Assembly: GCA_026004595.1 (NCBI GenBank)
Contig: BPJL01000006.1
Span: 12,299 to 76,298 of the forward strand
Length of the DNA: 64,000 bases
Source: Patescibacteria group bacterium
GTDB taxonomy: Bacteria > Patescibacteriota > WWE3 > UBA101185 > UBA10185
Direction of reading: 5' to 3'
Shown here: one piece after another, positions 1-64,000 of the stretch
How positions within the stretch are numbered: position 1 is the stretch's first letter
Layout of the letters: each line of letters starts with the position of its first letter
The notes under the pieces: generated by a model
The model's input: the letters and a program-made list of their open reading frames with translations, nothing else
The model's database searches: none
What the model was told of the DNA's origin: nothing
Made by a program: the position numbers and the translations under genes

Positions 1-324
1 AGTGTTTATTTCTAGAGATTTTGCCTTTTTGTTAAGGGAAACGGCTATTTTCATTGTATCAACCGCTCTTATTTGGGGAGAAGAAATTAACATATCAATT
101 TTTTTATCTTTCAGTTTTTCGGCTAACTCCAATGCTTGTTCCCTACCTTTTTCCGTCAAGGGCGAGTCCCGCCATCCGCTAAATACAAAGTTGGCATTGT
201 CCTCTGTTTGTCCGTGCCTGAAAATATATATTATTGGTCTTCCGGGCTTTTCAATCTTGGGGAGTGTGTCTGTGTGCTTGTAGCTTAAAATAGAAACTGC
301 CTTGTCAACTTTTTTCCCTTCCAT
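1..324 (-). CDS. Histidine phosphatase / phosphoglycerate-mutase family protein (N-terminal part; gene continues past window start)
   Basis: Minus-strand reading from ATG (complement of 322-324) gives MEGKKVDK...IIYIFRHGQTEDNANFVFSGWRDSPLTEKGREQALELAEKL...SSPQIRAVDT, matching the RHG-x-T-x-x-N / GW-x-D-x-x-LT / G-x-x-QA motifs of the PGAM family. The listed + ORF 2..283 is its shadow. Confidence 0.6.
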   Translation of the reverse strand, partial: MEGKKVDKAVSILSYKHTDTLPKIEKPGRPIIYIFRHGQTEDNANFVFSGWRDSPLTEKGREQALELAEKLKDKKIDMLISSPQIRAVDTMKIAVSLNKKAKSLEINT

Positions 325-399
325 ATTTTTTATAGTAAGGTTCAAGGAGAACAGAATCTATCATTTTTAAATCCTAGCATAAAATGTTATCATACTGAA

Positions 400-1679: not shown

Positions 1680-1849
1680 TAAAAACCCTCCTTGGCCTGA
1701 AAATATTTACGGATTTTCTTTGGTTTTTAGCTATTTTCATAGTACCGAAAAATATACGAAGATGTCAAGACCCTGTTTTCTAATACCGTTAGATATACAA
1801 GGCAGTAGGTAAGAGCGAGCCAAAGAAAACCCAAAAATATGCTACAATT

Positions 1850-9170: not shown

Positions 9171-9174
9171 TTTA

Positions 9175-10896: not shown

Positions 10897-10936
10897 GGGT
10901 AAATGCTACAATAACTTCGTGATTTCCTCAAATATT

Positions 10937-12286
10937 ATGGAAAAAGTCAAAAAGCTGCCTCAAACCCCAGGAGTCTACATCTACAAAGATAAAGGCGGGG
11001 AGGTTATATACGTGGGAAAAGCGAAAAATCTCAAATCTCGTGTGTCTTCGTATTTTCGGATTAATCTTGACCGCCGATCAAAAACATTCGCTCTGGCGCA
11101 AAATATCCACTCAATAGATTACATAAAAGTTGAAAGTGAGCTGGAGGCATTAATATTGGAGGCGGAACTCATTAAAAAATACCTGCCCATTTATAATGTA
11201 AATTTGAAAGATGACAAATCTTTTCTATACATTGGGATCAGAAATTCTAAGGAAAGTGTGGGAGGTAAAGTAATTTCTATCCCCACTGTTGAAACGTTTA
11301 GAAAAGGTAACGCCGAAAGATACAAGTATCGTTATGGTCCTTTTCCTGACGGCAAGACTGTTAAACAGTTAGTGAGGATGTTGAGAAGAATGTTTCCCTT
11401 TAAGGATTGCAGTACCTCGAAGTTTTGCAGATATAAGAAATTGAATACCCCCTGCCTGTGGGGGCACCTAAATTTGTGTCCAGCGCCATGTGTGTATGAA
11501 GAGGCAGTAATACCGGTTTGCAAAAGCAATATCAGATCTATTAAAAATATTCTTTCGGGGGGAACCAGCAGAATTATTGAAAAATACAACCGTCAAATGA
11601 AGAGATACGCCGCTGCCAGAGATTATGAGAGCGCGGCATCCTTGAGGGACCTGCTTCAGAGGTTTGAGTATGTCAGACAGTCGTTTCGTTTACCCAGAGA
11701 TTACATTGAAAATCCTTATCTTATCGATGATCTGGCCAAAGAGGCCCTTGAAAATATAATATCTTTTTTGCCATTTCTAAAAGAAATACCGACAAGAATA
11801 GAGTGCTATGATATTTCTAACATATCCGGTAAGGAAGCAGTAGGTTCTATGGTCACTGCGATTAACGGAAGGATAGATAAAAGCGGTTATAAGAGGTTCA
11901 GGATTAGGACAAAACAAACTCCCGACGATTTTTTAATGCTTTATGAAGTTCTGTATAGGAGGCTTTCGCACGAGACGGATGAAAAGAAAAAGAGCTGGGG
12001 GCTTCCTTCTTTAATAGTTTTGGACGGCGGGAAGGGGCAGCTTTCTTCGGGTCTTAAGGTTTTAGAAAAGTTGAATCTTGATGTTCCAATTATTGGTATT
12101 GCCAAACATCATGAAACAATAGTGTATAACGATAACGGGTTTCATGAAACCACTCCCGCCCTTGATCTGCCCGGTATGAGACTGCTTTTGAACTTAAGAG
12201 ATGAAAGCCACAGGTTTGCACAAAAATATCACCATGCCCTTCGTAGCAAGCAAGTATTTGGAAGGATAGTACAAAAGAAGCTATAA
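10937..12286 (+). CDS. uvrC: Excinuclease ABC subunit C (short form lacking the C-terminal HhH domain)
   Basis: GIY-YIG motif (GVYIYKDKGGEVIYVGKAKNLKSRVSSYF), C-terminal endonuclease motifs (LIVLDGGKGQL, RDESHRFA). Listed ORF begins at 10895; ATG at 10937 (MEKVKK) avoids overlap with the divergent gene. Confidence 0.9.
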   Translation: MEKVKKLPQTPGVYIYKDKGGEVIYVGKAKNLKSRVSSYFRINLDRRSKTFALAQNIHSIDYIKVESELEALILEAELIKKYLPIYNVNLKDDKSFLYIGIRNSKESVGGKVISIPTVETFRKGNAERYKYRYGPFPDGKTVKQLVRMLRRMFPFKDCSTSKFCRYKKLNTPCLWGHLNLCPAPCVYEEAVIPVCKSNIRSIKNILSGGTSRIIEKYNRQMKRYAAARDYESAASLRDLLQRFEYVRQSFRLPRDYIENPYLIDDLAKEALENIISFLPFLKEIPTRIECYDISNISGKEAVGSMVTAINGRIDKSGYKRFRIRTKQTPDDFLMLYEVLYRRLSHETDEKKKSWGLPSLIVLDGGKGQLSSGLKVLEKLNLDVPIIGIAKHHETIVYNDNGFHETTPALDLPGMRLLLNLRDESHRFAQKYHHALRSKQVFGRIVQKKL

Positions 12287-12952: not shown

Positions 12953-14284
12953 ATGAGACCGGTTATTATAGAAGGAGGTCATCCGCTTTTAGGCACCGTC
13001 GCTGTGTCGGGGGCTAGAAACTCTGCTTTGAAATTGATGGCCGCAGCAATGCTCTCAAATGATGATGTTACTCTCCAAAATGTTCCAAGAACCGAAGCCA
13101 TTGAAGATGATATGAAGATGATAAGAGCAATAGGGGGAAGAGTAGATTGGGCTGGTGCAGGCCGCTTAATCCTAAATGGAAGTGAAATTTCTTCATACGA
13201 AGTACCGTTAGAAATCGGCTCAAGGTACAGAACTTCCATATTGATGGCGCCTCCCCTGCTGTTTAGGTTCGGAAGAGCTTCTATTCCAAAAAACAAAGCA
13301 GGTACCGAACCTCGAAGGCCTATAAACAGGATAATAGATGCTTGGAAAAATTTGGGGATAGTTGTGGAGGAAGATGAGAAATACTATTTTATATCATGTG
13401 AGAAAGTGGCAGCTGGTCATGTAAGCTTCAAAAGGCCTAGCCATCTATCAACTGATGCGCTGATATTGACAGCTTCTTTTTTGCCCGGCACCACAGAAAT
13501 AAATAATGCTTCCGAGGAAAGCGAGATAGATGATTTGATCGAGTTGGTGAATAGGATGGGAGGAGATGTTGCGAGGAGTGAGCCAGGGGTAATAAAAATA
13601 AAGGGTGCCAACATTTTTAAAGAAGCAACGATGGATGTTCAACCTGACAAGACAGAGGCGGCTATTTTTTGCACTGCCGCTTTGATAACGAAAGGAAACA
13701 TAGTGATAAATAATGTAGATAGAAATGTAATGGTGCCGATGGTAAATTTTCTAACAAAAATTGGTGCCCGATATGAGTTTGAGCAGAATGCAATTAAAGT
13801 TTGGAGGCATGATGAACAACTGAAGGCTGTTAACCTCACAATTGCTCAAACTCCCGGTTTCATACCTGATTGGCAATCAATTGCAACTCTATTGTTGACG
13901 CAATGCGAAGGTACGGCTTATGTTCATGATACGGTATACACAGATCGTTTTGAGTATATAAAGGATTTGAATCGAATGGGTGCTAAAATTGAGCTGATGA
14001 GACCCTCGGATGCTGGGATTGCACCGGTAATAAGTGACGATACCTACGATCTCTCTGTTTTAGGAGAACCTTATACCGTTGCCAAGACAGAAGGACCGGT
14101 TAAGTTGAAAAGCGGGAAACTTGATATTCCCGATTACAGGTACGGAGCGGTTCATATTTTGGCAGCGCTGATCGCAGAGGGTAGAAGCGAGGTTAGTGGT
14201 ATAGAAAACATAGAGTCGCATATAGAAAATTTTAGAATGAAGCTAACAAATTTAGGAGCGAAAATATGGAATCAATGGGAATAA
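12953..14284 (+). CDS. murA: UDP-N-acetylglucosamine 1-carboxyvinyltransferase
   Basis: EPSP-synthase fold; N-terminal IEGGHPLLGTVAVSGARNSALKLMAAAML pattern of MurA. Confidence 0.9.
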   Translation: MRPVIIEGGHPLLGTVAVSGARNSALKLMAAAMLSNDDVTLQNVPRTEAIEDDMKMIRAIGGRVDWAGAGRLILNGSEISSYEVPLEIGSRYRTSILMAPPLLFRFGRASIPKNKAGTEPRRPINRIIDAWKNLGIVVEEDEKYYFISCEKVAAGHVSFKRPSHLSTDALILTASFLPGTTEINNASEESEIDDLIELVNRMGGDVARSEPGVIKIKGANIFKEATMDVQPDKTEAAIFCTAALITKGNIVINNVDRNVMVPMVNFLTKIGARYEFEQNAIKVWRHDEQLKAVNLTIAQTPGFIPDWQSIATLLLTQCEGTAYVHDTVYTDRFEYIKDLNRMGAKIELMRPSDAGIAPVISDDTYDLSVLGEPYTVAKTEGPVKLKSGKLDIPDYRYGAVHILAALIAEGRSEVSGIENIESHIENFRMKLTNLGAKIWNQWE

Positions 14285-15369
14285 TGCTGGATCTTTTATT
14301 TTTGTTTGGTGCTGGTTTTCTTTCATTTCTTTTGTACCCTGTTTGGATAAATCTGGTATACAAGTTTCAGATGGGAGAAGAAGTTCGCGAAGATGCTCCC
14401 AAAACCCATCAAATTAAGATGGGAACCCCGACCATGGGGGGTTTGGTTTTTGTTTCAGTTGTGGCCGTAATAACTCTTTTGTTAAATCGCTCTAGAAATC
14501 AAACCTTACTTCCTATATTTATCGCTCTTTTATCAGGGTTGCTTGGGATGGTTGAGGATTTTACTAAGGTTTATAAAAAATCAGGATTGCCGGGGTTTTT
14601 TGAGTACCACTTTGGTGGGATTTTCAGAAAGAGAGATGCACGTCCAAGAGGGATTTTGAGTCTTGTATTGAAACCTTGGGAGTATTTCAAAGGTTTTTGG
14701 AGAGTTGTCGGTAGCACAGACGCAAGCGGAATACAAACCTATAAAAAATTTATAGTTCAGGCTTTAATCGGGGGTTTTGTCGCTTATTGGGTTTATTTCA
14801 AATTGGGTTGGGATTATATCTGGTTTCCTTTGATAGGAGATGTACATATAGGGGCTTTTTATCCCTTTGTTGTCTTTCTGTTATTTATTGTGATATTAAA
14901 TGCCGTAGCGTTTACGGATGGTTTGGATGGTTTAGCAGGGGGTCTTTCACTAATGGCGTTTCTATCCTTTTGGGTAGTTTCCAGGGTCCTTGATTACAAC
15001 TCAATAGCTGTTTTTTGCGCCACATTTGTAGGGGCTCTTCTGCCTTTTTTGTATTTTAATATATACCCGGCTAGGATATTTATGGGAAACGTGGGCTCGC
15101 ATGTTCTTGGCGGCACTCTTGCTCTATTGGCAGTTATACTCCACCGCGAAATAGCTTTTTTGGTGATTGGGGCGGTTTTCCTGTTTGATGGAATAACCAG
15201 CCCTCTTCAGCAACTATCAGTTAAGTTGACGGGAAAGAGAATATTTCGTTTCGCTCCGATTCACCACCACTTTGAACTCATGGGGTGGCCTGAAACGAAA
15301 GTAACTTTAAGATTTTGGTTGTTCGGGGCGTTTTTTGCTTTTGCCGGAATATTCATTGCCCTCATGTAG
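14266..15369 (+). CDS. mraY: Phospho-N-acetylmuramoyl-pentapeptide transferase
   Basis: NAVAFTDGLDGLAGG and HHHFELMGW motifs, about 10 TM. Confidence 0.9.
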   Translation: MESMGIMLDLLFLFGAGFLSFLLYPVWINLVYKFQMGEEVREDAPKTHQIKMGTPTMGGLVFVSVVAVITLLLNRSRNQTLLPIFIALLSGLLGMVEDFTKVYKKSGLPGFFEYHFGGIFRKRDARPRGILSLVLKPWEYFKGFWRVVGSTDASGIQTYKKFIVQALIGGFVAYWVYFKLGWDYIWFPLIGDVHIGAFYPFVVFLLFIVILNAVAFTDGLDGLAGGLSLMAFLSFWVVSRVLDYNSIAVFCATFVGALLPFLYFNIYPARIFMGNVGSHVLGGTLALLAVILHREIAFLVIGAVFLFDGITSPLQQLSVKLTGKRIFRFAPIHHHFELMGWPETKVTLRFWLFGAFFAFAGIFIALM

Positions 15370-47430: not shown

Positions 47431-49278
47431 ATGGTACTGAAATTTGATCCGACAAGTCCTCAATATGAACATATAACAACTTTAAATCAGGCTAATAAAG
47501 CCCTTGAAGAATTGGAAAAAAACAAGGTTGTGGGTGTGGACATAGAAGGTACAGGGCTTGATCCATATACTTCAACTCTGCTTTTGTTGCAGATTGGCAC
47601 TGAAACAAAAAGCTATATTTTTGACGCGCGCATCCTTAACCTAAAAGAACTACCCAGACTTAAGGAGTTTCTTGAGAACAAAAAAATATTAAAACTTCTT
47701 CATAACGGAAAGTTTGACTATCGCCACATAAAAATTCATGTGGGTGCAGAAATGGATAATTTGTACGACACAATGTTAGCCGAAGTCATACTTAATGCTG
47801 GTATCGGCCGAGGTTACTACTCACTAAAAGATCTTGCGAGGAAATATACAAATACTGAACTAAAAAAAGATGTGAGAGAAACATTTGAGGGTGTTACGAC
47901 GAGATCAAAAATTACAGAGGAACAGCTAAAGTACGCCGCTTCTGATACTTTGATACTCTTTCCAATATTTGACCAGCAGCTTGTAAAGGTTAAGCAAGAA
48001 GGTTTATTGAATGTAGCTAAACTTGAATTTGCGGCTACACGTGCAGTAGCAGAAATGGAATTAAAAGGAATCTATATCAATGAAGAAAAATGGCGCGAGA
48101 TAATGAGAAATCTTGCAGAAAAGAGAAATGCAATAGCAAAAGAATTTCAGGAGGCCGTTCGTCCATATTACACTCACAACATGATAGATTTGTTCGGCAA
48201 TCACGCTGATTCTATTAACATCAATAGCCAGCAGCAGCTTATGGATCTTTTCAATAATAAATTGGATCTGAATCTTCCTTCCACAGGTGACGCTATTTTG
48301 GCTACTGTTAACCACCCTGTTGTAAAGCTTTTAAGAAACTACCGCGGTTATGAAAAATTGCTTTCGGCATTTGGCGAAGGTCTTCTTGAAAAAATAAATC
48401 CGGTTACTAAGCGTCTGCATCCGGAGTTTAACCAGCTTGGAACAGCTACTGGAAGATTTTCGTGCAACAATCCCAATCTTCAGCAGATTCCGAGAAATTC
48501 AGATGAGGCGCCGTTTAGAACTTGCTTCAACCCCCAGCCGGGTTATAAATTAGTGACTGCAGACTACTCCTCTTTTGAAATGCGAATTTTGGCAGAGCTG
48601 TCGGGAGACGCAAAAATGATAAAAGCCTTGAACGATGGCTTGGATATTCACTCTTACACTGCTTCATTAATGTTTAACGTGCCTTATAGCGAAGATTTTA
48701 AAAAGAAATACCCAGCCTTAAGGCAAATTGCTAAACCTATCGGATTTGGTCTTATGTATGGAATGGGACCTGTTGGTTTAGCGGCGAGGCTTGAGAATGA
48801 AACAGGAAAACCTGTATCAAGAGAGCAGGGAGAGGACTACATGAACAGATATTTTGCAAGCTACCCAAGCGTTAAAAGTTATCTTGAAAGAACGGCAAAA
48901 AAAGCTGTTCAAGATGGTTACAGCACTACGCCTCTAGGGAGGAAAAGATGGTATGAACGCCCGGTAAAAGACGACCCAGATTTTAGAAAGAAAGTTTCGC
49001 GAATTGAAAGGGAGGCCAAAAACCATCCGATTCAAGGTACAAACGCCGATGCCATTAAATACGCTCTGATCTTTCTAAACGAAAGGTTTAAGAAAGAGGG
49101 AATTGACGGCGGCCTTACTTTAACTGTTCACGATGAGATTGTATCGGAAGTGGAGGCTGACAAGGCGGAATATTGGGCTGAGGTGCAATCTCAAGAAATG
49201 GTCAGGGCGGCCGAGCTTTTTATCAAAAGGGTAAAGATAGAGAGTGAGCCGTTTGTTGGAGATGTTTGGGAGCACTAA
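47431..49278 (+). CDS. polA: DNA polymerase I, Klenow-like (3'-5' exonuclease plus polymerase; no 5' nuclease domain)
   Basis: Exo motif [23 protein letters not shown]; polymerase motif A ([15 protein letters not shown]), O-helix ([16 protein letters not shown]), motif C ([11 protein letters not shown]). RBS AAGGTGG. Confidence 0.9.
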
Positions 49279-49328
49279 CTCCAAAATTATTCTTGCACTC
49301 CACCACATCGAGTGCTAATATACTAAAC

Positions 49329-51440
49329 ATGATACTCTGCCAAAGATGCGGAATAAGACCCGCCAAATATCCAATAAGCCAGATAATAGAAGGTAAACAG
49401 CTTCAGGTTGCCGTCTGCGAGGTTTGCTATCAAGAACTTCTTAAAGAAACGAACCAATCAGCATCTAAACTTGATAAATTTGGCCGAGATCTCACTCAGT
49501 TGGCTAGAGAAGGCAAGCTAGATCCCGTTATCGGTAGAAAAGAGGAAATAGAACGCGTAATTCACATTCTCTCCAGAAGGACAAAAAATAACCCCGTACT
49601 CATAGGAGATCCGGGAGTGGGAAAAACGGCTATAGTTGAAGGCTTGGCTCAGAGAATTGTGAATGGTCAGGTTCCCGAGCCCCTAAGGGGAAAAAGAGTT
49701 TTTATGTTAGATCTCGCTTCTATAGTGGCGGGAACTTCTCATCGGGGTATGTTTGAAGCTCGTTTGAAAGATGTAATAAATGAGGTTGTTTCGGCAAACG
49801 GCCAAATAATAATGTTTGTTGACGAGCTACATACTGTTATTGGGGCAGGAAGCGCCGAGGGTTCGATGGATGCAGCAAACATCCTTAAACCAGCGCTTGC
49901 AAGGGGTGAGCTTCAGATGGTGGGTGCAACCACAATTGATGAATACAGGAAGTATGTTGAAAGGGATGCCGCTCTTGAGCGCAGGTTTCAGCCAATAATG
50001 GTAAACGAGCCAACCCCAGAGGATACGATAGAAATATTGAAAGGGCTTAGAGAGAGATATGAAACTCACCATCGAGTGAAAATATCCGATGAAGCCATTG
50101 AGACCGCAGTAAAGATGAGCGACCGATATATCTCAGATAGATTTCTGCCTGATAAGGCAATAGATGTTATTGATGAAGCATGCGCTATGGTGCGTCTTTC
50201 GCAAATTAAGGAGCCCGAAAATCTAAGGACGGTTGAGCAGGAAATTGAAGCTCTAAGGGCCGCGGGCAGAAAAAATAAGCTAACACAAGAACAAAAAGAT
50301 GAGATAAGGAAAAAAACCGAAGAACTTGAAAAAATCCGAACCGAGCTTGCTGAGATTTGGACAAGAACGAAACTTGAGGATATCCCAGAAGTAACCGAAG
50401 AAGATGTTATAAAAGTTGTTTCAAGAGCTACCGGAATACCCCTTGAAAAGCTTAACATTGTTGAAAGGGAAAGGCTGTTAAAGCTGGAAGAAACAATAAA
50501 GAAAAGGGTTGTGGGTCAGGAGAAGGCCATAAGTGTTTTGTCAGAAGCTATAAGAAGAGCCAGGGCGGGTTTGAAAGATCCGAAGAGGCCGATCGGATCG
50601 TTTTTGTTCTTAGGCCCCACAGGTGTTGGTAAAACGGAGCTGGCAAAAGCGTTAGCCGAGGCGTTGTATGGGGACGAGGATATGATAATACGCTTGGATA
50701 TGAGCGAATACATGGAAAAGCACTCTGTAAGCAAGTTGATAGGGGCGCCCCCCGGATATATCGGATATGAGCAAGGTGGCCAGTTGACAGACGTAGTAAG
50801 AAGAAAGCCATTTTCGGTCATACTGCTTGATGAAATAGAAAAAGCACATCCTGACACTTTTAACGCTCTTCTGCAGATAATGGAAGATGGAAGACTGACT
50901 GACAGCAAAGGAAGAACGGTGGATTTCAAGAATACCATTCTGATTTTGACTTCGAACGTAGGATCTGACCTGTTGCGCAGAAAAGACATCGGATTTGAAG
51001 AAGGCAAGGTGAGAGCAGGAAGCGAAAAACAAACTTCTGAAGACAGAAGGATATTTTCAATACTCAAGGACTCCTTCAAACCCGAGTTTCTAAATAGAAT
51101 AGATGAGATAATAATTTTTACAAGTCTAACTAAAGAGGACATTAAAGAAATTGCCATAAGAATGATAGAGAAAACCAGAAAAATGCTTTCTGAGCAAAAT
51201 ATTCATTTGGAGGTTTCTGACAAAGCCTTAGATTATCTCGTGGAGAATGGATACAGTGATGAGTATGGAGCAAGGCCATTAAGACGGTTGATACAGAAAG
51301 AGGTTGAGAACACGATATCGGCAAAGATAATTAGCGGAGAAATATTAGAAGGCGATCTGGTGTATGTCGATGTTACAGAAGATGGGGGTTTAGCTGTAGA
51401 AGCAAGAAAGTCCGCTAAAGTCTCGTCCAGAAAGAAATAA
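49329..51440 (+). CDS. Clp-family double-AAA+ ATPase, ClpE/ClpC-like, with N-terminal C4 zinc ribbon
   Basis: CQRCG...CEVC zinc ribbon replaces the Clp N domains; AAA1 Walker [17 protein letters not shown]2 Walker [17 protein letters not shown]; an IGF tripeptide ([12 protein letters not shown]) resembles the ClpP-docking loop. Listed ORF starts at 49266 inside polA. Confidence 0.85.
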
Positions 51441-51478: not shown

Positions 51479-52009
51479 ATGGCCGACAATAATCAAGATA
51501 CAAATAAAAAAGATACCGACCAAAAGGAAGAACAGTCCGATCTAAAGGATGGGGAGCCGAAAGAAGGTGAAATGTCTGAAGAAGCATTAAAGGACGAAAC
51601 CCATGAAGAGCTAAAAGAAGACTCTGTGGAAGAAAGTTCGGAGGAAGGAACTATTGAAGAAGAGGTAGAAGAGGAGGTCAAAATGGCTGCGGATGAGCCT
51701 AGAATTCCCGATTTCAGGGTTGGTGATACGATTAGGGTTTTCTACAAAATAATTGAAGGGGACAAGATGAGGATTCAGCCGTTTGAGGGAATTGTCATCT
51801 CTTTTAGGGGCTCTGATGTTTCGAAAACATTTACTGTAAGGAGAATAGGGGCCGATCAGGTTGGAGTTGAGAGGATATTTCCCCTTTACACCCCAAATAT
51901 CGAGAGAATAAAAGTTGTTAAGAGGGGTAATGTGAGGAGGGCAAAACTTTACTATCTCAGAAAGAAAGTTGGAAGAGAAGCGATGAGGGTTCGGGAGCAT
52001 AAGAAGTAA
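51479..52009 (+). CDS. rplS: 50S ribosomal protein L19 with ~65-aa acidic N-terminal extension
   Basis: C-terminal 110 aa ([33 protein letters not shown]...[45 protein letters not shown]) is L19; the N-terminus is D/E/K-rich low complexity. Confidence 0.85.
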
Positions 52010-55642: not shown

Positions 55643-56078
55643 AGCTTACCAATTTTACCGCAGTATTGCTTTTGCATAAAGTTTATTTGAGCAAAATCAA
55701 AACTAGTGGTTATGAGCTTTTTTAATCAAACTTGGTTTTTACCTCTAAATTTGGTGGTACTGCTGGAAAAATTTTATTTGGTATCAGGATTGTAGGCGAA
55801 GATGGTAATTTTATAGTTGTGGTTGCAGCCTTCTTCCGGATGACCGCAGGGTACGCAGCTTCAGCTGGGTTTTTTATGCTAGGCTATCGTTGGGTTTTCA
55901 GAAAAAAAGGAAAATCTTATATGGTATGATAGGTTGTTTGCCACCAAGGCTTAAAGCATAGAAAGCCCTTTTTGGGAAATTTTGTTTCTGTTTTTATATA
56001 GCTTCAGTTTTGCAGCTTCCTTATCTATATACATATTTACTGTAATTAGATTTTTGTATTAAAAACCCTTTTTGATAT

Positions 56079-56406: not shown

Positions 56407-56706
56407 ATGGTCAAGAGCCACGTCAGCCGGGATCCGGGTATATTTGAGCTGATAAACAGAAACCTGCGATTGGTGCTTAAGTTGTTAAAGGACAAACGTG
56501 TTCCTTTTCTTCTTAAGCTTTTACCAATAATAGGTGGAGTGTGGCTAATTTACCCCGACCTTATCCCGGGACCGCTGGACGATGTTTTGGTTATCTACCT
56601 CACGTTTTATGGTTTCATTGAACTGGCTCCGGATGAAGTTGTAAAAGAACTTCGTAAGGAAGTTAGTCATGGAAAGGAAAACGTGATAGAAGGCGACATC
56701 GACTAG
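56407..56706 (+). CDS. DUF1232 (YkvA-like) membrane protein
   Basis: RVPFLLKLLPIIGGVWLIYPDLIPGPLDDVLVIYLTFYG matches the DUF1232 core; RBS GAAAGGAG. Confidence 0.55.
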   Translation: MVKSHVSRDPGIFELINRNLRLVLKLLKDKRVPFLLKLLPIIGGVWLIYPDLIPGPLDDVLVIYLTFYGFIELAPDEVVKELRKEVSHGKENVIEGDID

Positions 56707-56712
56707 CTACCA

Positions 56713-56750
56713 AGAGAGAGCTTTTATATTCAAAAACAAAAGCTCTCTCT
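56713..56750 (+). terminator. Terminator-like perfect 13-bp hairpin
   Basis: AGAGAGAGCTTTT (56713-56725) pairs with AAAAGCTCTCTCT (56738-56750); no clear U-tract. Confidence 0.45.
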
Positions 56751-56818
56751 GTATCCTTAGGAATTTTGGATCTTGATCATTTTGTTTGTCCGTCCCGGCC
56801 ACTTGCGCCGTGCGGATG

Positions 56819-56929
56819 TACTTTGAAAACACAACAAGAAAGAGGTGGTTGCCCTACTTAGGTTTGCACCTTCGAGACTTTCAGCATGCTGGAAGTTTTG
56901 CAGGTGCGTAGCCTAATAAGAGGCAGCCA
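56819..56929 (+). promoter_or_regulatory. Repeated leader element, copy 1 (box A, box B, hairpin, box C)
   Basis: Box A 56819-56842, box B GGTTGCCCTACTTAGGTTTGCACC, hairpin GCACCT (56866-56871) / AGGTGC (56902-56907), box C GGTGCGTAGCCTAATAAGAGGCAGC. Same architecture as copy 3. Confidence 0.55.
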
Positions 56930-57023
56930 TATCAATAAGTGAAAGGAGTAAAAAATTGGAAAATACCTGTTTCCTAGTTTCGAATTGCCAGTAAGTCAAC
57001 CATTGAATAAAACGGAGGTAAAA

Positions 57024-57281
57024 ATGCAAACGTTAGTTAGCAACATAATTTTTTTGAGTGTGCTGGTATTCGCAGCAGCTTTGGTGATCTTTGGATTGCT
57101 GAAGTTCATCAAGGTACTTAAAGGAGAGCTCTCTGTAGGTGAGGCTCTGATGGCCATAGGCGGTGTGGTAATCGGTGCAGCAGTTGTAATATGGGCTGCG
57201 ACCGATTTCAACGGGAGCAGGATCATAATCGATACGGTTGGAAAGTGGATCATCCAGATTCTAACCGAGCCCCTAGGCTAG
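57024..57281 (+). CDS. Small 2-TM protein (VirB2/TrbC pilin-like topology)
   Basis: 86 aa from the ATG after RBS AACGGAGG: hydrophobic leader (IIFLSVLVFAAALVIFGLL), charged loop, second hydrophobic segment (ALMAIGGVVIGAAVVIWAA). Listed ORF begins at 56985. Confidence 0.5.
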   Translation: MQTLVSNIIFLSVLVFAAALVIFGLLKFIKVLKGELSVGEALMAIGGVVIGAAVVIWAATDFNGSRIIIDTVGKWIIQILTEPLG

Positions 57282-57288
57282 GTTAGCT

Positions 57289-58869
57289 ATGAAGACAGCT
57301 GCTGTTCCAACAATCCTGGTGGGCGCTCTTCTGCTTACTGGATGTGCGGAAAAACCGGATAATCTGGAGGTGTTTTTTGATTGGCGGCAAAAATTCTTTT
57401 TGCATGTTGATCAACAGACGGTAGAGCCTTGGGTAGGGCCGGTTTTAAGGCTAGCGGTAGCAGTAGCCTTAGTTCTTTGCTTACTGGTGTTGATACACAA
57501 CCTGAAAAGTGAAAGGCCTATCTGGGGTTATAATTTCATCACAGGTCTCTCAATTTTTGTAGCGATCGCTTTAGTGTATTTTTACATCCCCGCAGCTACA
57601 GCTTTTGGTGAGGCCATAATGCCCCCAGAATTAACGCTTGATAGGGTTTTTTCAGCTCTAAGGTTAGGGTTGGACGGAGGTTTGGCTGACTTGCTTGTAG
57701 GAGGCTGGGCTATAACCTTTACACTCGTTCTCCCGCTCTTTTCGGCTTTTTGGGAAATAATGATGTTGTTGGGTGCCGTTGTTGCTCTAATAGCAACAAC
57801 TTTAGCAAGAAGCATGAAAGGTATCGTTTACATTGTAACGCAGGTGTATGGATGGGGATCTTTCCTTGTTCTTTACAACACCTTAATATCGTTGATCGAC
57901 CGTTACTATCCTACATGGGATTATATGCCTGTAAAGATATTTGTAACGGCGTTCTATGTAATGGTATCTGTCACATTGCTTCTTTTTTGCTACATTGGAA
58001 TACCCTTCTTTGCAATCTCCCTCGTGCCGAGATCAGATGACGAATACAAATCATCTGGAAAGAAAAGGGAGGAAAGAATACGGGACTCCAAAGTGGATTG
58101 GGGGACTATTTTTGCTCCCATACCCATACCCAACGACTCGCCGGACGATGAGCCTGATCAAGATCGATACCATAGTAACGACAATTACGATGATGAGGAT
58201 CCTTCAGATGGTAGTATAAATCCCCAACTACCCCGGGGTCCGAGTGGTGGTGGATTGGGAGAGGTTATCGAAGCACATAAAGGAGATATCCCACCGACTA
58301 AAGTTTCTCGTTCGGAAACTTCGGAAACTAGTAATGGCGATGAACCTGATCCCAATAAAATACTTTTATCGAAAAGTTCGAGATTGGGTTCCAACATTGA
58401 ACACAAAGATTCCAGAGTTTCCGAAGAGGTTGTTGATTCTGTTGAGAACTTCCCTTCGAGTAAAGTTAAACAATTAAAAAGCTTGGAGAGTGGTTCCCGA
58501 TCTGCGGAAACAAGTCGTCCTAACCGGAACAATGGAGATTCCAACCGCCTGGAAATAGATGTCAAAAAAGACAAGCTAAAGAAAGATAAGGCCCACGTAG
58601 AATTTCTGGACAAAACCGGCAAAGTTTTGGAGGTCGTGGGTGTTGTTACCGCATCTCCTAAAGTCGTAATTTTCGGCAAGGGTGTTGAGTTAGCAGCCGA
58701 TGTGTTGGACCGTGCTACGGAAGAAGGTGCAGATACAAAGAAGGTTTTGGATCATTCTGCCAAAGAAGTAGCCAAACGGGTTTTGCGAAACAAATACCCA
58801 GACTTGGTAGAATTTGCAGTCGGCAAGGACGATCGGGACGAAAACAAGCTTAACATGGAAGGAGGGTAG
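57289..58869 (+). CDS. Polytopic membrane lipoprotein with long acidic/Ser-rich disordered C-terminal domain (VirB6-like architecture)
   Basis: Lipobox LLLTGC, about 6 TM helices, then ~270 aa low-complexity D/E/S/K/P-rich tail. Confidence 0.6.
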   Translation: MKTAAVPTILVGALLLTGCAEKPDNLEVFFDWRQKFFLHVDQQTVEPWVGPVLRLAVAVALVLCLLVLIHNLKSERPIWGYNFITGLSIFVAIALVYFYIPAATAFGEAIMPPELTLDRVFSALRLGLDGGLADLLVGGWAITFTLVLPLFSAFWEIMMLLGAVVALIATTLARSMKGIVYIVTQVYGWGSFLVLYNTLISLIDRYYPTWDYMPVKIFVTAFYVMVSVTLLLFCYIGIPFFAISLVPRSDDEYKSSGKKREERIRDSKVDWGTIFAPIPIPNDSPDDEPDQDRYHSNDNYDDEDPSDGSINPQLPRGPSGGGLGEVIEAHKGDIPPTKVSRSETSETSNGDEPDPNKILLSKSSRLGSNIEHKDSRVSEEVVDSVENFPSSKVKQLKSLESGSRSAETSRPNRNNGDSNRLEIDVKKDKLKKDKAHVEFLDKTGKVLEVVGVVTASPKVVIFGKGVELAADVLDRATEEGADTKKVLDHSAKEVAKRVLRNKYPDLVEFAVGKDDRDENKLNMEGG

Positions 58870-58870
58870 T

Positions 58871-59182
58871 ATGAGTCCCTTTTCCTTTCTTGGTGACAGT
58901 AAGATGAGATCGATCAGATATAAACTGTTCGATCATTCTTACACTATCCTGCCGGTTTGGGGTGTGATCGGAATCTTATTTGTTTCCGGTCTGTTTCTTT
59001 ATTTCGGCGGGCTCCGTTGGGTATGCCATGGTACTTCGGGAATAGTTTTTGTTTGGGTAGTTTTCACTCTGCTCAATAAAGTCCTGAAAGCTCGGGCATA
59101 CAAAAAAATCAGCGAAAAGAGCAGACGTGACCAATCCGAGGTAGTTGTTACCTACCTTTCGGATCCCCCGTACCGCTCCTAG
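58871..59182 (+). CDS. Small 2-TM membrane protein (VirB3-like size and topology), immediately upstream of the ATPase
   Basis: 103 aa from the ATG after RBS GGAGGG; helices ILPVWGVIGILFVSGLFLYFGGL and GIVFVWVVFTLL; basic C-terminus. Listed ORF begins at 58814. Confidence 0.5.
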   Translation: MSPFSFLGDSKMRSIRYKLFDHSYTILPVWGVIGILFVSGLFLYFGGLRWVCHGTSGIVFVWVVFTLLNKVLKARAYKKISEKSRRDQSEVVVTYLSDPPYRS

Positions 59183-59191
59183 AAACTTGAA

Positions 59192-59227
59192 AGGATAGGG
59201 TTTTTCCCCAACCCTATCCTTTTCTCT
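59192..59227 (+). terminator. Rho-independent terminator
   Basis: AGGATAGGGTT (59192-59202) pairs with AACCCTATCCT (59210-59220), followed by TTTCTCTC. Confidence 0.6.
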
Positions 59228-59349
59228 CTTTCTTGTTGTGGCTCTTTTTGAGTTTTCAATATATTTGATTATTCAAAAAGAGGGTACGAGAAACAAATAA
59301 TTTGCAAAAACATCATAGATGTTGGCACTTTGAAAACACAACAAGAAAG
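59225..59349 (+). promoter_or_regulatory. Repeated leader element, copy 2 (partial: 16-mer TCTCTTTCTTGTTGTG plus box A only)
   Basis: 16-mer at 59225-59240, identical to 62821-62836. Box A ACTTTGAAAACACAACAAGAAAG at 59327-59349, identical to copy 1. Confidence 0.5.
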
Positions 59350-59476
59350 CTAAGAAGAGATTATGTTTTTGTTGAGCAGGGCACCTAAAAGAGCCTGAAC
59401 ACTGTCGGGTTCTTTTGGGTGTCATGCTCAATCAGGGCTTGAACATAATAACTAAATCAATAAGAAAGGAGTTGAG

Positions 59477-61417
59477 ATGGATCTGAAAAAACTTTTATTT
59501 CCGGGAACAGATGCAAGATTGTTACCTGAATCCTCCGTGTTTTTAAACGCGGTAACCAGGGAAGAGACAATTAGTGCTCGAGAGCTCCTTGGTGTGACGA
59601 TCCACCCCGTAAAGGGAGGTGCTGCTGGTGTCAGAAGTACGAATGGAGGTGCTACGCGTGTAATCGCATATCACCAAAGCTCTAAATTCACCGATGGCAG
59701 CGGTTTGGATATACGGCAGGCTTACAAGTACACTTCTAACTTAACAATGTTGCTTAGGCTGGTTAAGCACTACCCCGCCTCTTTTGTAAGGCATGTTCAG
59801 AACGAAAAGGATGGTGAAAAAACAGCCCGTACCGAATTTCTCGATGATGTCATGGAGTGGGCACTTCCTCGGAAAGGAAAGATTAGCGGTCATGATCTGT
59901 TACTTTGGGGAGATTTAGGAGCAATCATTCCCGAAAATAGGGAAGAGACGGCATCGTTACATGGAAAGATTGTTTCTTATCTTCAAGCCGCGTCTGTACT
60001 TCGGAGTGTAATTTTAAGTACCCCAATGTCTCTGGAAGATGCAAAGTACGACTTGATCACAAAAAGCTATGATGCAGTTTGGTATGCTGCACCCAGAAAA
60101 GTGTTTTGGTACCCTGATTTTTATTCGCTACCGGACTCTAATTTGGCATACGCTTTTTGGAGTGGTGTGGTATCTCCTGAGAATATCCGTGAACTAATGG
60201 ATATGGGAGATATACTGCTCTACACGGAGGTGGTCGAGGGTTATCTTTACGCGACCGCTATACTTCGTGTGGTAGTGCCGATTAGAAACGGAACTGCTGA
60301 CTTTTCCTCTGAAACCTCCCAGCTGATGAAACTGGGCAAATGGGAGAGGCGGACAGGTGCGGATCTGAAAAAAGCATTTCAGGCCTTTGTTCCAGGAAGT
60401 GCACCACCTCCGGCATGGGACAGGCACTCAGTACACAAGCCGAACTACGTTCTGTCGGCCATTCAAAAGTCTCTAAAGAATGTTGGGGATAAGAACGGAG
60501 ATACTATGAGCGGTTTCATAGATGACGAGCCGTTCTTTCTCAACAACCAGCTTCGTCCCAGTCGTATCTACTTAGGGCCCAGCAAAGTGGGAAAGTCTAC
60601 CCTTGCTGCAGCACACGTTTTGCAAACCAATGGCTGTAGGGTCATATGGATGCCACTGACAGCGGGTCAATTTGAATCCGCACCCCATTGGGTAGAAAGA
60701 TTCGAAGGAACTGTAATAAACTTAAATCTTCCGGATGCATATACACTTCATAGACAAAACGATAAGCAAAACGGAACCAGGCCTACACGTGTCGATATGG
60801 TGGCCAAACAAGAGGAGTTGCACGTTGAGGACAAAGAAGCGGCCGAAAAGACAGTAGCAAAGCTGGAGGCTGAGTGGTATCAGCGGGGTAAGATTGTAGG
60901 GTTGCCGCTTACGTTTCGTGTTAAGTCAGGCGACACTGTACGATTGCTGAACTGGTACAACCATTTCTTAACTGCTATGAGGGAGGCCTGGAAAAGGTGG
61001 TACGAGCTTACCGGAGAACTTGCCACCATCGTTGCAGACAATTTCAGTGCGTTGAAATTATCGGACAACGACCCCTTGTTAGGTGAATTGCCTGCGGCAA
61101 TAGGGGAGAATCTAGGACTAAACCTAGCTTGGTTGGTATCTAACGGTCGAAATATTGGCCTTTCATGCTGGATTACGACTCATAGCAAGGAAGATCTTGA
61201 TCATATAAGCACCGGCCTATTCAACCAGTTTGGATTGTGCTTCAACCTCAAACACAATGATTTCACTTTTTGTGAGGTCAGCCAGCCGAAAGATCGAGAT
61301 GTTTTGGTACCAAAGCTCTATATAAAGCTTCCTTATCCCATCAAACGCGTTGTTGAAAGACGCGAGCCGAACCTGGATGAACTGCCGTGGACGCAAAAAG
61401 AAGTTTCCGCGGACTGA
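59477..61417 (+). CDS. FtsK/HerA/VirB4-like P-loop NTPase (divergent)
   Basis: Walker A GPSKVGKST (60575-60601), then CRVIWMPLTAGQFE (the hhhhD-x-x-GE-Y spacing seen in VirB4/HerA/FtsK ATPases). Walker B-like TIVADNF (DN not DE) and arginine-finger/TQ-like LSCWITTHS. No TM; RBS AAAGGAG. Confidence 0.6.
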   Translation: MDLKKLLFPGTDARLLPESSVFLNAVTREETISARELLGVTIHPVKGGAAGVRSTNGGATRVIAYHQSSKFTDGSGLDIRQAYKYTSNLTMLLRLVKHYPASFVRHVQNEKDGEKTARTEFLDDVMEWALPRKGKISGHDLLLWGDLGAIIPENREETASLHGKIVSYLQAASVLRSVILSTPMSLEDAKYDLITKSYDAVWYAAPRKVFWYPDFYSLPDSNLAYAFWSGVVSPENIRELMDMGDILLYTEVVEGYLYATAILRVVVPIRNGTADFSSETSQLMKLGKWERRTGADLKKAFQAFVPGSAPPPAWDRHSVHKPNYVLSAIQKSLKNVGDKNGDTMSGFIDDEPFFLNNQLRPSRIYLGPSKVGKSTLAAAHVLQTNGCRVIWMPLTAGQFESAPHWVERFEGTVINLNLPDAYTLHRQNDKQNGTRPTRVDMVAKQEELHVEDKEAAEKTVAKLEAEWYQRGKIVGLPLTFRVKSGDTVRLLNWYNHFLTAMREAWKRWYELTGELATIVADNFSALKLSDNDPLLGELPAAIGENLGLNLAWLVSNGRNIGLSCWITTHSKEDLDHISTGLFNQFGLCFNLKHNDFTFCEVSQPKDRDVLVPKLYIKLPYPIKRVVERREPNLDELPWTQKEVSAD

Positions 61418-62767
61418 TAGGGTGTGCCATTATCCCCGGCATCCCAATAATGCTTGTGATCTGCTTATTAAGTCTGATCCTAGCATTGGGATACATGCAC
61501 GATACAGACCCTAAGGCATACAACGAATACATCGGAGATGTCTTGGGTCTGTCCGGGGGGACTTGGTACACCCTCACACCGGACGATGAAGAGCTAATTC
61601 TGGAACTGGGATTTGATCCGGCGGTTGTAGCCAACGAAATTATGGCCAACCGCTGGATCAATGAAAATGGCGGAGAGATAGACCTTGGTATTCAGTTGGC
61701 CATTTTGGAAGGAGAGTCCAAGGCGGGAAAAAACATGGGAACATGCAACGGATTACTTTCCGCTGCGAAATTTTCAAGGCAGGAGGTAGAAGCAGCAGAG
61801 TGGTTGTTAAGACGCTGGAGCGCAGCCGGAATACGAGACTGGTCAGAAATTGCACGGAAAATGGTTACGCCTGACTACAGTGACTACACAGCACACTGTT
61901 CAGCCGGCGAGATAGGACCTAACGGTATTCTTCCGTCGACAGGTGTCACTATATGTAAGTATGGGCTTTCAGAGCACCCTAACCCATTGGTGCGTTCCTG
62001 CAATTTTTTTGATGAAAGGGTTGCGCCTTATGGAAAAAATTGGTGGTTAAAAGCTATCGGATACAAATCCACAGCTTCAAAATCCGATAATTTTGAAGCT
62101 CTGTACGGTTGGAACCATAGCGAGTTCTATAGGACACAGTTGCTCGAAAAAGCTGATTATTACAATAGTTTTTTTCGACAATTGGAAAGGGAATCCACAG
62201 GAAAACGAAATATATGTTTTCAAAGGAACATTGTTGCAAAGTATCGCAGTCAAATTCCTGAAATATGTCGGTCTTCTGTCGGCAGAGGTTTACGCTGCGG
62301 GTCCTGACGAGGGCGCTGGAGAAGCCTTGCCCATTGATGGTTTCGTCCACCCTTACCCCGGGGGTTTTCTTTGTGGATATGGTTTCGGAGTCCCTGTTGC
62401 GAATGGTATTCACTGGGGGGTAGACCTGTGTTTTGGTTCTCCTTGGAAATCCGCTCCCATCTACGCGATGCACTCCGGTAAAGTTGCCTTTGCAAGGTAT
62501 CTTTCCCCCAGCGAACCATTAGCGGGACAATGGTGGATTTCCGGAAATGTAATCGTGATTGAAGGAAAAGATGCTTCCGGAAATACAATCTGGACAGCTT
62601 ACGGCCACGGCCTTAACGGTAGTATGGAAGTTGAGGTCGGAGATGTTGTAGAGAAAGGCCAGAAGATCATGATGTCGGGGTCAACAGGCTTTTCTTCGGG
62701 TATTCACCTTCACCTGGCTATGAAAGTTAACGGTCGGTGGGTGAACCCCGCAACATACCTAAAATAA
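61387..62767 (+). pseudogene. Membrane-anchored bifunctional peptidoglycan hydrolase (SLT-like lytic transglycosylase plus M23 peptidase), interrupted by a +1 frameshift (pieces 61387-62307 and 62093-62767; probable site T7 run 62169-62175)
   Basis: Piece 1: TM (IIPGIPIMLVICLLSLILALGY), SLT-like ILEGESKAGKNMGTCNGLL (Glu-Ser catalytic pair). Piece 2 (+1 frame): M23 motifs HWGVD, YGHG, GIHLHLAM. Confidence 0.7.
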
Positions 62768-62948
62768 GGGCGATTGATGAAAGCAGATTTTTCTCTTTCC
62801 AGTCGCCCTATCTCTAAATTTCTCTTTCTTGTTGTGTAAGCGCAAGGATTTATATTTTATGAATTTTTACGCTTCGGTTTCAGATAGATTTTTTTTGGAA
62901 CCGCTATAAATACAAACTGCCCCCTGCTTTATTAATAAGGAGAAAGGC

Positions 62949-63048
62949 ACTTTGAGAACAAAACAAGATAGATAGGTTGCCTTTAGGTACGTACCCGCAA
63001 GGCTTTTACTAGAAGTTTTACGGGTGCGTAGCCTAATAATAGGCAGCT
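62949..63048 (+). promoter_or_regulatory. Repeated leader element, copy 3 (box A variant, box B, hairpin with compensatory changes, box C)
   Basis: Box A ACTTTGAGAACAAAACAAGATAG at 62949-62971, box B GGTTGCCTTTAGGTACGTACC, hairpin GTACCCG (62991-62997) / CGGGTGC (63021-63027), box C GGTGCGTAGCCTAATAATAGGCAGC. Confidence 0.55.
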
Positions 63049-63083
63049 ATAAATAGGAAATATAAAAAAGAAAGGAGGATGGA

Positions 63084-64000
63084 GTGAATAAAGGATTTGC
63101 TGCGGTATTGCTGCTCTTTCTTGTACTATGTGGCACATTGGGTTTTGTAGTTTTTGGGTTGAATATTGTGGGAAGAGCGGACGTGCTCAAAAGCCTAGTA
63201 CTACCTGATGTAAAGAGTATCTTGACGGTATGTACCACAATGGTTGTAATAATAATTACATCCCAGGTTCTTTCATTTTGGGTTGCAAGGCTTGGGAAAA
63301 GTGTTGTCCACAGCTATTTTGACCGAAGGTGGCTCCCTAAAGAGAACAATAGTGAATCGTACACAACCTCATACGGAGAACGGCTCGAAAAAGTTGTATT
63401 ACCTAGTTATCTTGGAACAACGGTTTGGGATCTTGCCGCGCACACCTTTCCGTCAATGTTCGTTGTCAGCTTAATTGCAAGTATCGCGGTTTATGTGATT
63501 CTAACTGTAGCGGGTATTGGCGCTTTTCAGGTTTGGGTTATCTTGACCCTACTCATTCTAGCTTGTAATTTCATACTCGTCCCTGTCACGTATTGGATTA
63601 AGGAGTGGAAAAGGAAATATACAAAGTTCATCATATTTTCCTTCAATGTCATATACATTGGTGTAAAAACACCGATTCTTGCTTTGTTTTTCTGGAAGGG
63701 GAGCTTGCCGCAGAAGAGCAGAACTCCAATTACAGAAGTTTTGGAAATACAAATGTCGGCCGATCCCCAGCAATTCAAAGAGGAGTATCGTACCTCCTGG
63801 CTTAGGGACCAATGGACATCAATACTATCCAGGCGAGTAGGTTTGCGGACAATCTTTCTAAGAAGCCGCAGTAATAAAGCGGAGGATATCATTCTTTGGA
63901 TCGATAACGGTCCGGCGATAGATAAAATCCTTCGAAATCTTAGCGAAAAGGCTTTGAGGTCTCAATTGGGGGCTGGTCTAATTGCTCAAACTGTGGCCAA
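63084..64000 (+). CDS. Polytopic membrane protein (at least 6 TM), partial; VirB6/TcpH-like by context only
   Basis: Open frame (frame 0) from GTG 63084, 5 nt after RBS AAAGGAGG, to the window end with no stop (traced codon by codon). Hydrophobic helices (FAAVLLLFLVLCGTLGFVVFGL, ILTVCTTMVVIIITSQVLSFWVA, FVVSLIASIAVYVILTVAGIGAF, VWVILTLLILACNFILV). Missed by the ATG-based ORF track. Confidence 0.5.
   Translation, partial: MNKGFAAVLLLFLVLCGTLGFVVFGLNIVGRADVLKSLVLPDVKSILTVCTTMVVIIITSQVLSFWVARLGKSVVHSYFDRRWLPKENNSESYTTSYGERLEKVVLPSYLGTTVWDLAAHTFPSMFVVSLIASIAVYVILTVAGIGAFQVWVILTLLILACNFILVPVTYWIKEWKRKYTKFIIFSFNVIYIGVKTPILALFFWKGSLPQKSRTPITEVLEIQMSADPQQFKEEYRTSWLRDQWTSILSRRVGLRTIFLRSRSNKAEDIILWIDNGPAIDKILRNLSEKALRSQLGAGLIAQTVA

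Follow-up and report, generated by a model that had tools for sequence, protein, structure and literature searches.

A gene cassette of candidate division WWE3 that probably encodes a divergent, chromosomal type IV secretion-like apparatus

Type IV secretion systems (T4SSs) of the Patescibacteria were surveyed in 2025 (PMC12102498). Most of these bacteria were found to encode a monophyletic, MPF_FATA-related VirB4 with VirB3-, VirB6-, and VirB2-like genes near it; the systems are chromosomal, and relaxases are almost absent. Epibiotic growth of Candidatus Southlakia epibionticum requires the T4SS genes as well as the peptidase and lysozyme genes that follow directly after virB4 (PMC12102498). 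The same survey describes large membrane-anchored hydrolases in monoderm T4SS loci and M23 domains in some VirB1-like proteins of the phylum, notes that VirB8 is rarely found in Patescibacteria, and reports that some Patescibacteria VirB4 proteins cluster with archaeal homologs, mentioning archaeal DNA-importing relatives of VirB4. It was carried out with a VirB4 hidden Markov model (HMM), to which ~20% of genomes were unmatched, and the available portions of its text and tables contain no WWE3 genomes. In the literature on secretion in WWE3 (Katanobacteria) we found nothing specific and no paper on a WWE3 T4SS. Here we describe a cassette at positions 57,024 to 64,000 of a 64,000-nucleotide (nt) stretch of WWE3 DNA (contig BPJL01000006.1 of assembly GCA_026004595.1, forward-strand positions 12,299 to 76,298), which we refer to as the window. 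The cassette combines genes for membrane proteins, an ATPase, and a cell-wall hydrolase, and is probably the WWE3 version, highly divergent, of the chromosomal, nonconjugative, monoderm-type T4SS of the Patescibacteria.

The original prediction, made from the DNA sequence, saw in these genes a divergent T4SS-like apparatus around an NTPase of the FtsK/HerA/VirB4 type. Fold searches, profile comparisons, and colinearity with PrgH-PrgI-PrgJ-PrgK of pCF10 all support this central claim. The 646-amino acid (aa) NTPase was modeled with AlphaFold2 from an alignment of eight sequences (predicted local distance difference test, pLDDT, 76), and the predicted fold consists of a VirB4-type N-terminal domain and an FtsK/HerA-type P-loop domain. 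In a Foldseek search of the PDB the top match was full-length TrwK/VirB4 of R388 (7o41_B; E 6.6e-12, TM-score 0.53/0.51, 736 columns), to which sequence identity is 9 to 12%. HerA came next (E 6.6e-8, TM-score 0.26, about half that of TrwK), and FtsK, EssC, and coupling proteins were further down; for the ATPase domain, HerA scored near VirB4. Profile–profile comparison with hhalign likewise favored VirB4. Specifically, the 69-member ATPase family aligned with VirB4 (PrgJ, TrwK, TcpF, TrsE, and TraC) at 96.2%, E 2.4e-9, over 152 columns starting ~100 residues before Walker A, and with five type IV coupling proteins (T4CPs) at 86.1%, E 5e-6, over 73 columns, each reference alignment holding five sequences. 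Because Foldseek and hhalign both prefer VirB4, we accept the VirB4-like label; the predicted fold and the profile alignment make the NTPase a probable distant member of the VirB4 family. Its Walker A motif, G-x-S-K-x-G-K-[ST], is invariant (general form G-x-x-x-x-G-K-[ST]), K373 is present in 69 of 69 family members, and a stretch reading R-[NK]-x-G ... T-[TA]-H-S resembles the R-K-x-G ... T-Q-S motifs of VirB4. The second position of Walker B is N in all eight WWE3 sequences; across the family of 69 it holds D in 42 members, N in 25 members, and E in a single one.

The ATPase is not seen by standard models. Curated VirB4, TraC, or CagE models of Pfam and NCBIfam matched 0 of the 69 family members, which gave generic P-loop matches only; PHROGs and PADLOC left the ATPase unmatched, a five-sequence VirB4 HMM missed it in hmmsearch, and its family profile run against PDB sequences gave short P-loop matches only, with EssC/EccC best. 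Indeed, when every cassette protein was searched against Pfam, NCBIfam, PHROGs, PADLOC, and the PDB, M23 alone was matched, and no curated profile recognizes any other part of the cassette. The many HerA defense complexes among the Foldseek matches bring in another reading of the ATPase, as part of a HerA-type antiphage defense or DNA-repair module. However, HerA TM-scores are half of that of TrwK, and the partners of the ATPase are membrane proteins and a peptidoglycan hydrolase, with no nuclease, SIR2, or DUF4297 partner. A module of this kind is extremely improbable, and a defense system was rejected on the negative PADLOC result (0 of 8 proteins) and the absence of nuclease partners.

The seven plus-strand open reading frames (ORFs) are present where they had been placed, with the topologies described for them (hydrophobicity scan and orthologue alignments; Table 1). 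Gene order across related genomes, which the original prediction had proposed to compare, recurs in each related locus that reaches far enough: wherever the sequence suffices, the genes encode in turn the small two-transmembrane (2-TM) protein, a polytopic protein, a protein of ~100 aa, the ATPase, the M23 hydrolase, and a second polytopic protein. Order and strand are kept in loci L001 to L012 and L021 to L023, down to ~23% ATPase identity, which exceeds chance. The spacing is conserved too, with 1 to 7 nt between genes one to three and an overlap of ~30 nt between the hydrolase and ATPase genes. A 768-kb JGI contig matches the window at 99.26% identity. Relatives of the ATPase were traced to four candidate division WWE3 genomes, among them the complete RAAC2_WWE3_1 chromosome, in which genes P147_WWE3C00001G0241 to 0247 are annotated as "hypothetical" throughout except for one "Peptidase, M23 family." The ATPase family is rare, with 8 clusters among 5.8 billion proteins in a word-indexed search and 82 representatives among 1.84 billion proteins in a full profile search.

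Table 1. Features of the cassette and their positions (window coordinates unless another locus is named)
Feature	Position	Strand	Basis
99-aa protein, one weak hydrophobic segment; doubtful or accessory	56407-56706	+	ORF only
Small 2-TM protein, 85 aa	57024-57281	+	ORF; two hydrophobic segments (hydrophobicity scan)
Polytopic lipoprotein, 526 aa	57289-58869	+	ORF; hydrophobicity scan; orthologue alignment
2-TM protein, 103 aa, charged tail	58871-59182	+	ORF; hydrophobicity scan; orthologue alignment
Terminator-like hairpin	59189-59223	+	Stem-loop, 14-bp stem and T-rich tail
VirB4-like NTPase (predicted), 646 aa, soluble	59477-61417	+	ORF; Walker A; predicted fold
TM-anchored M23 hydrolase, frameshifted in window	61387-62767	+	Two ORFs, 61387-62307 and 62093-62767
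Polytopic membrane protein "mem," cut by window end	63084-64000	+	ORF; hydrophobicity scan
Divergent Rho-family ATPase, 454 aa, beyond window	L001 15049-16413 (about window 64530-65894)	+	Same-strand gene after "mem"

Three proteins upstream of the ATPase had been likened to VirB2, VirB6, and VirB3, and in each case the topology held, whereas the family label is supported by topology and position only. The 85-aa protein is indeed a 2-TM peptide and is kept at its position in most WWE3-type loci, but Pfam, PDB, and hhalign searches gave it no link to VirB2, PrgF, PrgG, or TcpD; it stands where PrgF/PrgG or a VirB2-type pilin would be expected, by analogy of place and topology only, and its identity as such is unproven. 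The LLLTGC lipobox of the polytopic lipoprotein is conserved, and residues 45 to 250 contain about five TM helices; the large disordered domain that had been described is a low-complexity tail of ~270 aa. The protein has no Pfam or hhalign match, and its VirB6-like label comes from topology and position. An AlphaFold2 model of residues 1 to 276 was built from a shallow alignment, the homolog search having given three proteins (pLDDT 56). Among 350,542 PDB chains, TrwI/VirB6 of R388 ranked first, second, and fourth against this model (E 0.45 to 0.94, TM-score 0.31 to 0.33), a ranking that is not significant yet is suggestive, because few VirB6 chains exist. The 103-aa protein has the size and two TM segments of VirB3 but does not lie immediately 5′ of the ATPase gene, as had been thought, being separated from it by 294 nt that contain a hairpin. 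It has no Pfam or PDB match, and among eight hhalign references its best was PrgI, a weak hit (16%, E 0.0016).

In orthologues, too, none of the four membrane proteins matched a T4SS family in Pfam or the PDB, and profile comparisons (hhalign) with PrgF/G/H/I/L, TrwL/M/I/G, TcpC/D/E/H, TrsB/C/F/H/L, TraA, and TraL were negative or weak, with low power, the reference alignments holding only five or six sequences. The original prediction had named, as a result that would speak against it, an NTPase of an unrelated clade among neighbors that hit no T4SS family; the NTPase matched VirB4 best by fold and profile, whereas the flanking proteins indeed have no T4SS family match. As a separate observation on this part of the locus, 20 of the ~108 positions (substitutions plus indel bases) at which the window differs from the 99.3% identical L001 cluster in 58500-59500, where they affect the tail of the polytopic lipoprotein and the 103-aa protein, the latter with ~9 amino acid changes. 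This region may be a fast-evolving, exposed part.

The hairpin divides the cassette. A strong stem-loop directly follows the stop codon of the 103-aa gene in 10 of 10 loci examined; the stem is often the same, GGATAGGG/CCCTATCC, and it occupies equivalent positions in L004 to L012 and L021. Between it and the ATPase gene lies a noncoding leader, 250 nt long in the window and 200 to 500 nt across loci. No Rfam family was found at the hairpin and leader or elsewhere in the locus. We infer that the hairpin acts as a terminator or attenuator, so that more of the membrane subunits is made than of the ATPase and hydrolase.

Downstream of the ATPase, the original prediction had a TM-anchored protein with both a lytic transglycosylase (SLT) domain and an M23 domain. 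The anchor and M23 were found, whereas SLT was not detectable in the WWE3 orthologues. The protein consists of the N-terminal TM anchor, a middle domain of ~250 aa that is highly conserved in WWE3 but unassigned, and a C-terminal Peptidase_M23 domain (Pfam E 7e-16) that is present in nine of nine orthologues. Its zinc motifs, HxxxD and HxH, are visible as H-W-G-V-D and H-L-H, and LytM and lysostaphin in the PDB match at 1e-13. The Pfam SLT model matches one of the nine orthologues, a distant one (E 5.9e-5) rather than the window-type member that was scanned first; sequence comparison suggests that it is the orthologue from L012. An E-G-E-S motif of the WWE3 hydrolases aligns to S-E-S of this SLT-matching protein, and hhalign comparison of the middle domain with the lytic transglycosylases of R388 and F and with PrgK, TrsG, and TcpG was negative. 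A +1 frameshift in the window, an extra T in the run at 62163-62169 (T6 to T7), breaks the hydrolase gene into two ORFs. The gene is intact in L001, L002, and L003, which have T6 and a single gene of 408 to 458 aa; the T7 run probably reflects either misassembly or a homopolymer of variable length.

With ~600 to 700 bits among WWE3 orthologues, the hydrolase is the best-conserved cassette protein, and in the window the hydrolase and ATPase genes share 31 nt. Both facts could also fit the main non-T4SS rival, a machine that does not secrete at all but serves cell-wall remodeling or cell separation; there the M23 hydrolase would be governed by an FtsK/HerA-type ATPase together with membrane partners, with a logic like that of FtsEX-EnvC/PcsB. 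The position of the locus among housekeeping genes, its apparently vertical inheritance, and the closeness of the HerA and VirB4 scores for the ATPase domain point the same way. However, such a machine would leave the colinearity with PrgH-PrgI-PrgJ-PrgK and the match of the ATPase N-terminal domain to VirB4 unaccounted for, VirB6 ranks first for the polytopic protein (not significantly), and large membrane-anchored hydrolases also belong to monoderm T4SS loci (PMC12102498). We consider cell-wall remodeling unlikely as the function of the cassette.

A further polytopic protein, "mem," had been seen to run off the window end, and the system was suggested to continue past 64 kb. Both are borne out by L001, in which "mem" is complete (404 aa, 13603-14817), polytopic with a cytoplasmic C-terminal domain, and followed by a gene for a Rho-family ATPase. 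"mem" comes after the hydrolase in all loci and has no family or PDB match. The Rho-like gene follows it on the same strand in ten distinct loci that are complete downstream, L001/2, L004/8, L005, L007, L009, L010, L012, L021, L022, and L023, at a spacing of 2 nt in L021 and L022, and is missing only in L011. That locus, from a WWE3 metagenome-assembled genome, is either decaying or poorly assembled: its VirB4-like gene lies in three ORF pieces, "mem" is cut short at 330 aa, and a Rho-like gene is missing after it (10028-11795 and 13298-14290). In L020 a "mem" homolog and a Rho-like ATPase stand together among housekeeping genes (8860-11185), the rest of the cassette not being found within 10 kb. 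"mem" and the Rho-like ATPase can occur as a pair outside the cassette; our conclusion is that they are linked both with one another and with the cassette.

The affinity of the downstream ATPase to Rho was clear at the sequence level. A single sequence matched PDB Rho with E 4.7e-18 and the family profile did so with E 1.8e-38, over Rho residues ~83 to 389, while the ATPases of type III secretion systems and F1 reached 7e-12 or weaker. Walker A, Walker B, and a Q-loop–like GG motif are conserved in the family. At 83 bits the protein falls short of the NCBIfam cut-off for Rho (315 bits), and a clear gap separates the Rho-like family (at least 115 bits) from canonical Rho (at most 68 bits). Rho_RNA_bind or Rho_N was found in 0 of 24 Rho-like members, and five of the 24 instead match a MazE/AbrB-type domain in their N-terminal part. 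By these scores and motifs the downstream ATPase is classed as having a Rho-type domain and as not being canonical Rho. Literature on Rho in the candidate phyla radiation yielded nothing specific. As an additional observation, the Rho-like ATPases read D-R-P-E-D where Rho reads E-R-P-E-E; L012 and L020 retain the E.

The archaeal Ced and Ted DNA importers are composed of a VirB4-like ATPase and of polytopic and small 2-TM membrane proteins, as is seen in WWE3, and are not known to include a relaxase or coupling protein. Neither a hydrolase nor a Rho-like ATPase is known as a part of Ced. An analogy of this kind underlies a rival account that concerns function and direction rather than ancestry: the cassette would be a T4SS-derived nucleic acid import machine akin to Ced/Ted, its VirB4-like and membrane parts forming a conduit through which "mem" and the Rho-family ATPase would pull host single-stranded RNA or DNA into the WWE3 cell. 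The Rho-family translocase as an integral, ordered member of the cassette, its occurrence with "mem" alone in L020, the lack of a detected relaxase or T4CP, and the degenerate Walker B of the VirB4-like protein all fit this account. So do the grouping of some Patescibacteria VirB4 proteins with archaeal homologs (PMC12102498) and a report of host-RNA import by a cultivated Patescibacteria ectoparasite, whose tubes its authors regard as possible T4SS pili (bioRxiv 10.64898/2026.06.21.733656, 2026). However, the RNA-binding domain of Rho went undetected in all 24 Rho-like members, the Rho-like protein could be the housekeeping terminator of the lineage that lies beside the cassette by vertical synteny, and the hydrolase, as a part not known from Ced, counts against import. 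We regard import as a less likely alternative. Equally speculative is, in WWE3 and its relatives, a two-part motor in place of the FtsK-like coupling protein of a T4SS-derived machine, in which "mem" and a Rho-family hexameric translocase that lacks the RNA-binding N-terminal domain would act with a VirB4 homolog lacking the catalytic Glu and thread single-stranded nucleic acid, such as host RNA, across the envelope; the preprint on host-RNA import is in keeping with this reading as well.

The chromosomal surroundings bear on whether the cassette is, or was, mobile. hisS adjoins it in three species. Small reference HMMs found no relaxase, VirD4/coupling protein, VirB8, or VirB11 in the window or its 10-kb flanks; for the window this agrees with what had been noted, and the extension past 64 kb, which showed the cassette continuing in L001, brought no relaxase or coupling protein in the flanks that were retrieved. 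Searches of 72,556 plasmids and of a viral contig collection gave no member of the ATPase family. Because of the shared neighborhood, the lack of plasmid or viral relatives, and the lack of a local relaxase or coupling protein, these data indicate that the cassette is a vertically inherited chromosomal system and not a mobile element; a plasmid or phage origin was rejected, the family not being found in plasmid and viral collections. Nevertheless, conjugation is the ancestral role of VirB4-type ATPases, the cassette has a tRNA-Lys gene 2.6 kb upstream of it, and L004 has a large serine recombinase upstream of hisS, so that the cassette might belong to an integrative conjugative or mobilizable element whose relaxase and coupling protein are elsewhere or too divergent. 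Against this, the window and flanks yielded no relaxase, T4CP, or integrase, the cassette has the same chromosomal position in several species and no plasmid or viral relatives, and relaxases are rare in Patescibacteria T4SS loci in any case (PMC12102498). The locus, which had been called AT-rich, has a GC content of 0.42 to 0.48 against a window mean of ~0.41, near that of its surroundings. Membership in such an element is very improbable.

Other features of this neighborhood are of interest in their own right. Upstream of the cassette, the window encodes a ClpC/ClpB-type double-AAA chaperone (49266-51440) and ribosomal protein L19 with an acidic N-terminal extension of ~70 aa (51479-52009), and the distant locus L022 likewise has a ClpC-L19 pair upstream of its cassette. 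Between hisS and the cassette lies a 65- to 73-aa fragment of an RDD-family membrane protein (window 55732-55929, L001 6255-6476). It looks like a decayed remnant, because L004 and L007 hold at the same place a full 203-aa RDD gene, together with a gene of ~360 aa. In L004, from a RAAC2-type strain, positions 1-3307 upstream of hisS encode a ResIII helicase, a PD-(D/E)XK nuclease, and the serine recombinase (528 aa); this segment, absent from the window, may be an inserted mobile or defense element. The 99-aa gene at 56407 has orthologues in L005, L007, and L009 and in the near-identical L001 to L003 only, and its product has no family match in Pfam, NCBIfam, PHROGs, PADLOC, or PDB searches. 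Because it is conserved in some loci only, it is probably outside the core cassette.

Several points weigh against reading the cassette as a T4SS. The ATPase is the sole component with real homology evidence, and the VirB2, VirB3, and VirB6 labels are positional and topological only; the VirB6 match, at E ~0.5, comes from a model of pLDDT 56. No coupling protein was seen in the window or flanks, and VirB8 is missing by two low-sensitivity measures, the cassette giving no HMM match and containing no bitopic gene of 200 to 250 aa. The catalytic Glu of Walker B is lost across the ATPase family, 67 of 69 members having D-D or D-N, and that the family descends from the VirB4 clade of Patescibacteria is an assumption. 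Set beside the fold match, the profile preference, and the constant gene order, these points leave a T4SS-type ancestry probable, as stated at the outset. A nonconjugative derivative, one of the options that had been put forward, agrees with the lack of a relaxase or coupling protein nearby and has precedent in other Patescibacteria classes (PMC12102498). Rather than conjugation, the most likely function is interaction with the host or transfer of macromolecules, and the cassette may be the means by which these ultrasmall, host-dependent bacteria carry material across the envelope.

On this T4SS reading, the first unit, which ends at the hairpin and encodes the small protein and the VirB6- and VirB3-like proteins, would supply the membrane platform and possibly a pilin. 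A hexamer of the VirB4-like ATPase would dock on the VirB3/VirB6-like platform through its N-terminal domain. The overlap of the hydrolase and ATPase genes suggests translational coupling, and the hydrolase may open peptidoglycan for the channel, either in the cell's own wall or in that of the host. "mem" and the Rho-family ATPase could form a second motor at the point where conjugative systems have the coupling protein.

A T4SS reading is in itself no longer surprising for Patescibacteria, a host-dependent group that accounts for a large part of bacterial diversity and in which, for the sole lineage tested, epibiotic growth requires the T4SS. The present locus would add that WWE3 carries a version missed entirely by curated profile libraries, a blind spot of HMM-based surveys. 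Because this version escapes curated profiles, Patescibacteria lineages scored as VirB4-negative may still have the machine. The constant presence of the Rho-family ATPase and "mem," together with the degenerate Walker B, provides a testable hypothesis on what powers transfer and what is carried, and it bears on how Patescibacteria acquire nucleotides or nucleic acids from their hosts. If the two-part motor is real, it would represent a T4SS class with a new architecture and would be a candidate for the route by which these parasites acquire nucleotides.

Among the closest described systems, pCF10 of Enterococcus faecalis agrees in layout. Its order, PrgF/G-PrgH (VirB6)-PrgI (VirB3, 117 aa)-PrgJ (VirB4)-PrgK (large hydrolase), is that of the WWE3 cassette. 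However, pCF10 also encodes a VirB8-like protein (PrgL), a coupling protein (PcfC), and a relaxase (PcfG), none of which was found in the WWE3 window or flanks, and no pairwise or profile similarity was detected beyond the ATPase. In pCW3, TcpD/TcpE are followed by TcpF (VirB4), TcpG (hydrolase), and the polytopic TcpH. The Trw system of R388 (7o41, 7o3v, and 8rt9) supplies the best structural match to the ATPase over both domains, TrwK, and the first-ranked match to the lipoprotein, TrwI, the latter not significant; unlike the WWE3 cassette, it is of the diderm type and includes VirB7-11 as well as a pilus. Canonical Rho and the cassette ATPase have the ATPase domain in common, whereas that of the cassette is fixed beside a membrane protein in a T4SS-like setting.

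Closest in kind are the T4SSs of other Patescibacteria. Like them, the WWE3 cassette is chromosomal, without a relaxase in the window or flanks, and monoderm-type, with no outer-membrane core, and its virB4-like gene is accompanied by genes that by position and topology are VirB3-like, VirB6-like, and small pilin-like. As in Candidatus S. epibionticum, a peptidoglycan hydrolase gene lies directly downstream of it. Unlike theirs, which were found with a VirB4 HMM, the WWE3 ATPase is invisible to curated models (0 of 69), its Walker B reads D-[D/N], and by hhalign the WWE3 cassette is without a TrsD homolog. The WWE3 cassette has, as fixed parts, a Rho-family ATPase and the membrane protein that partners it, and the word "Rho" does not occur in the available portion of the survey text (PMC12102498). 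Relative to that survey, the WWE3 cassette is therefore new in three respects: its invisibility to profiles, its degenerate Walker B, and the fixed Rho-family ATPase with its partner membrane protein.

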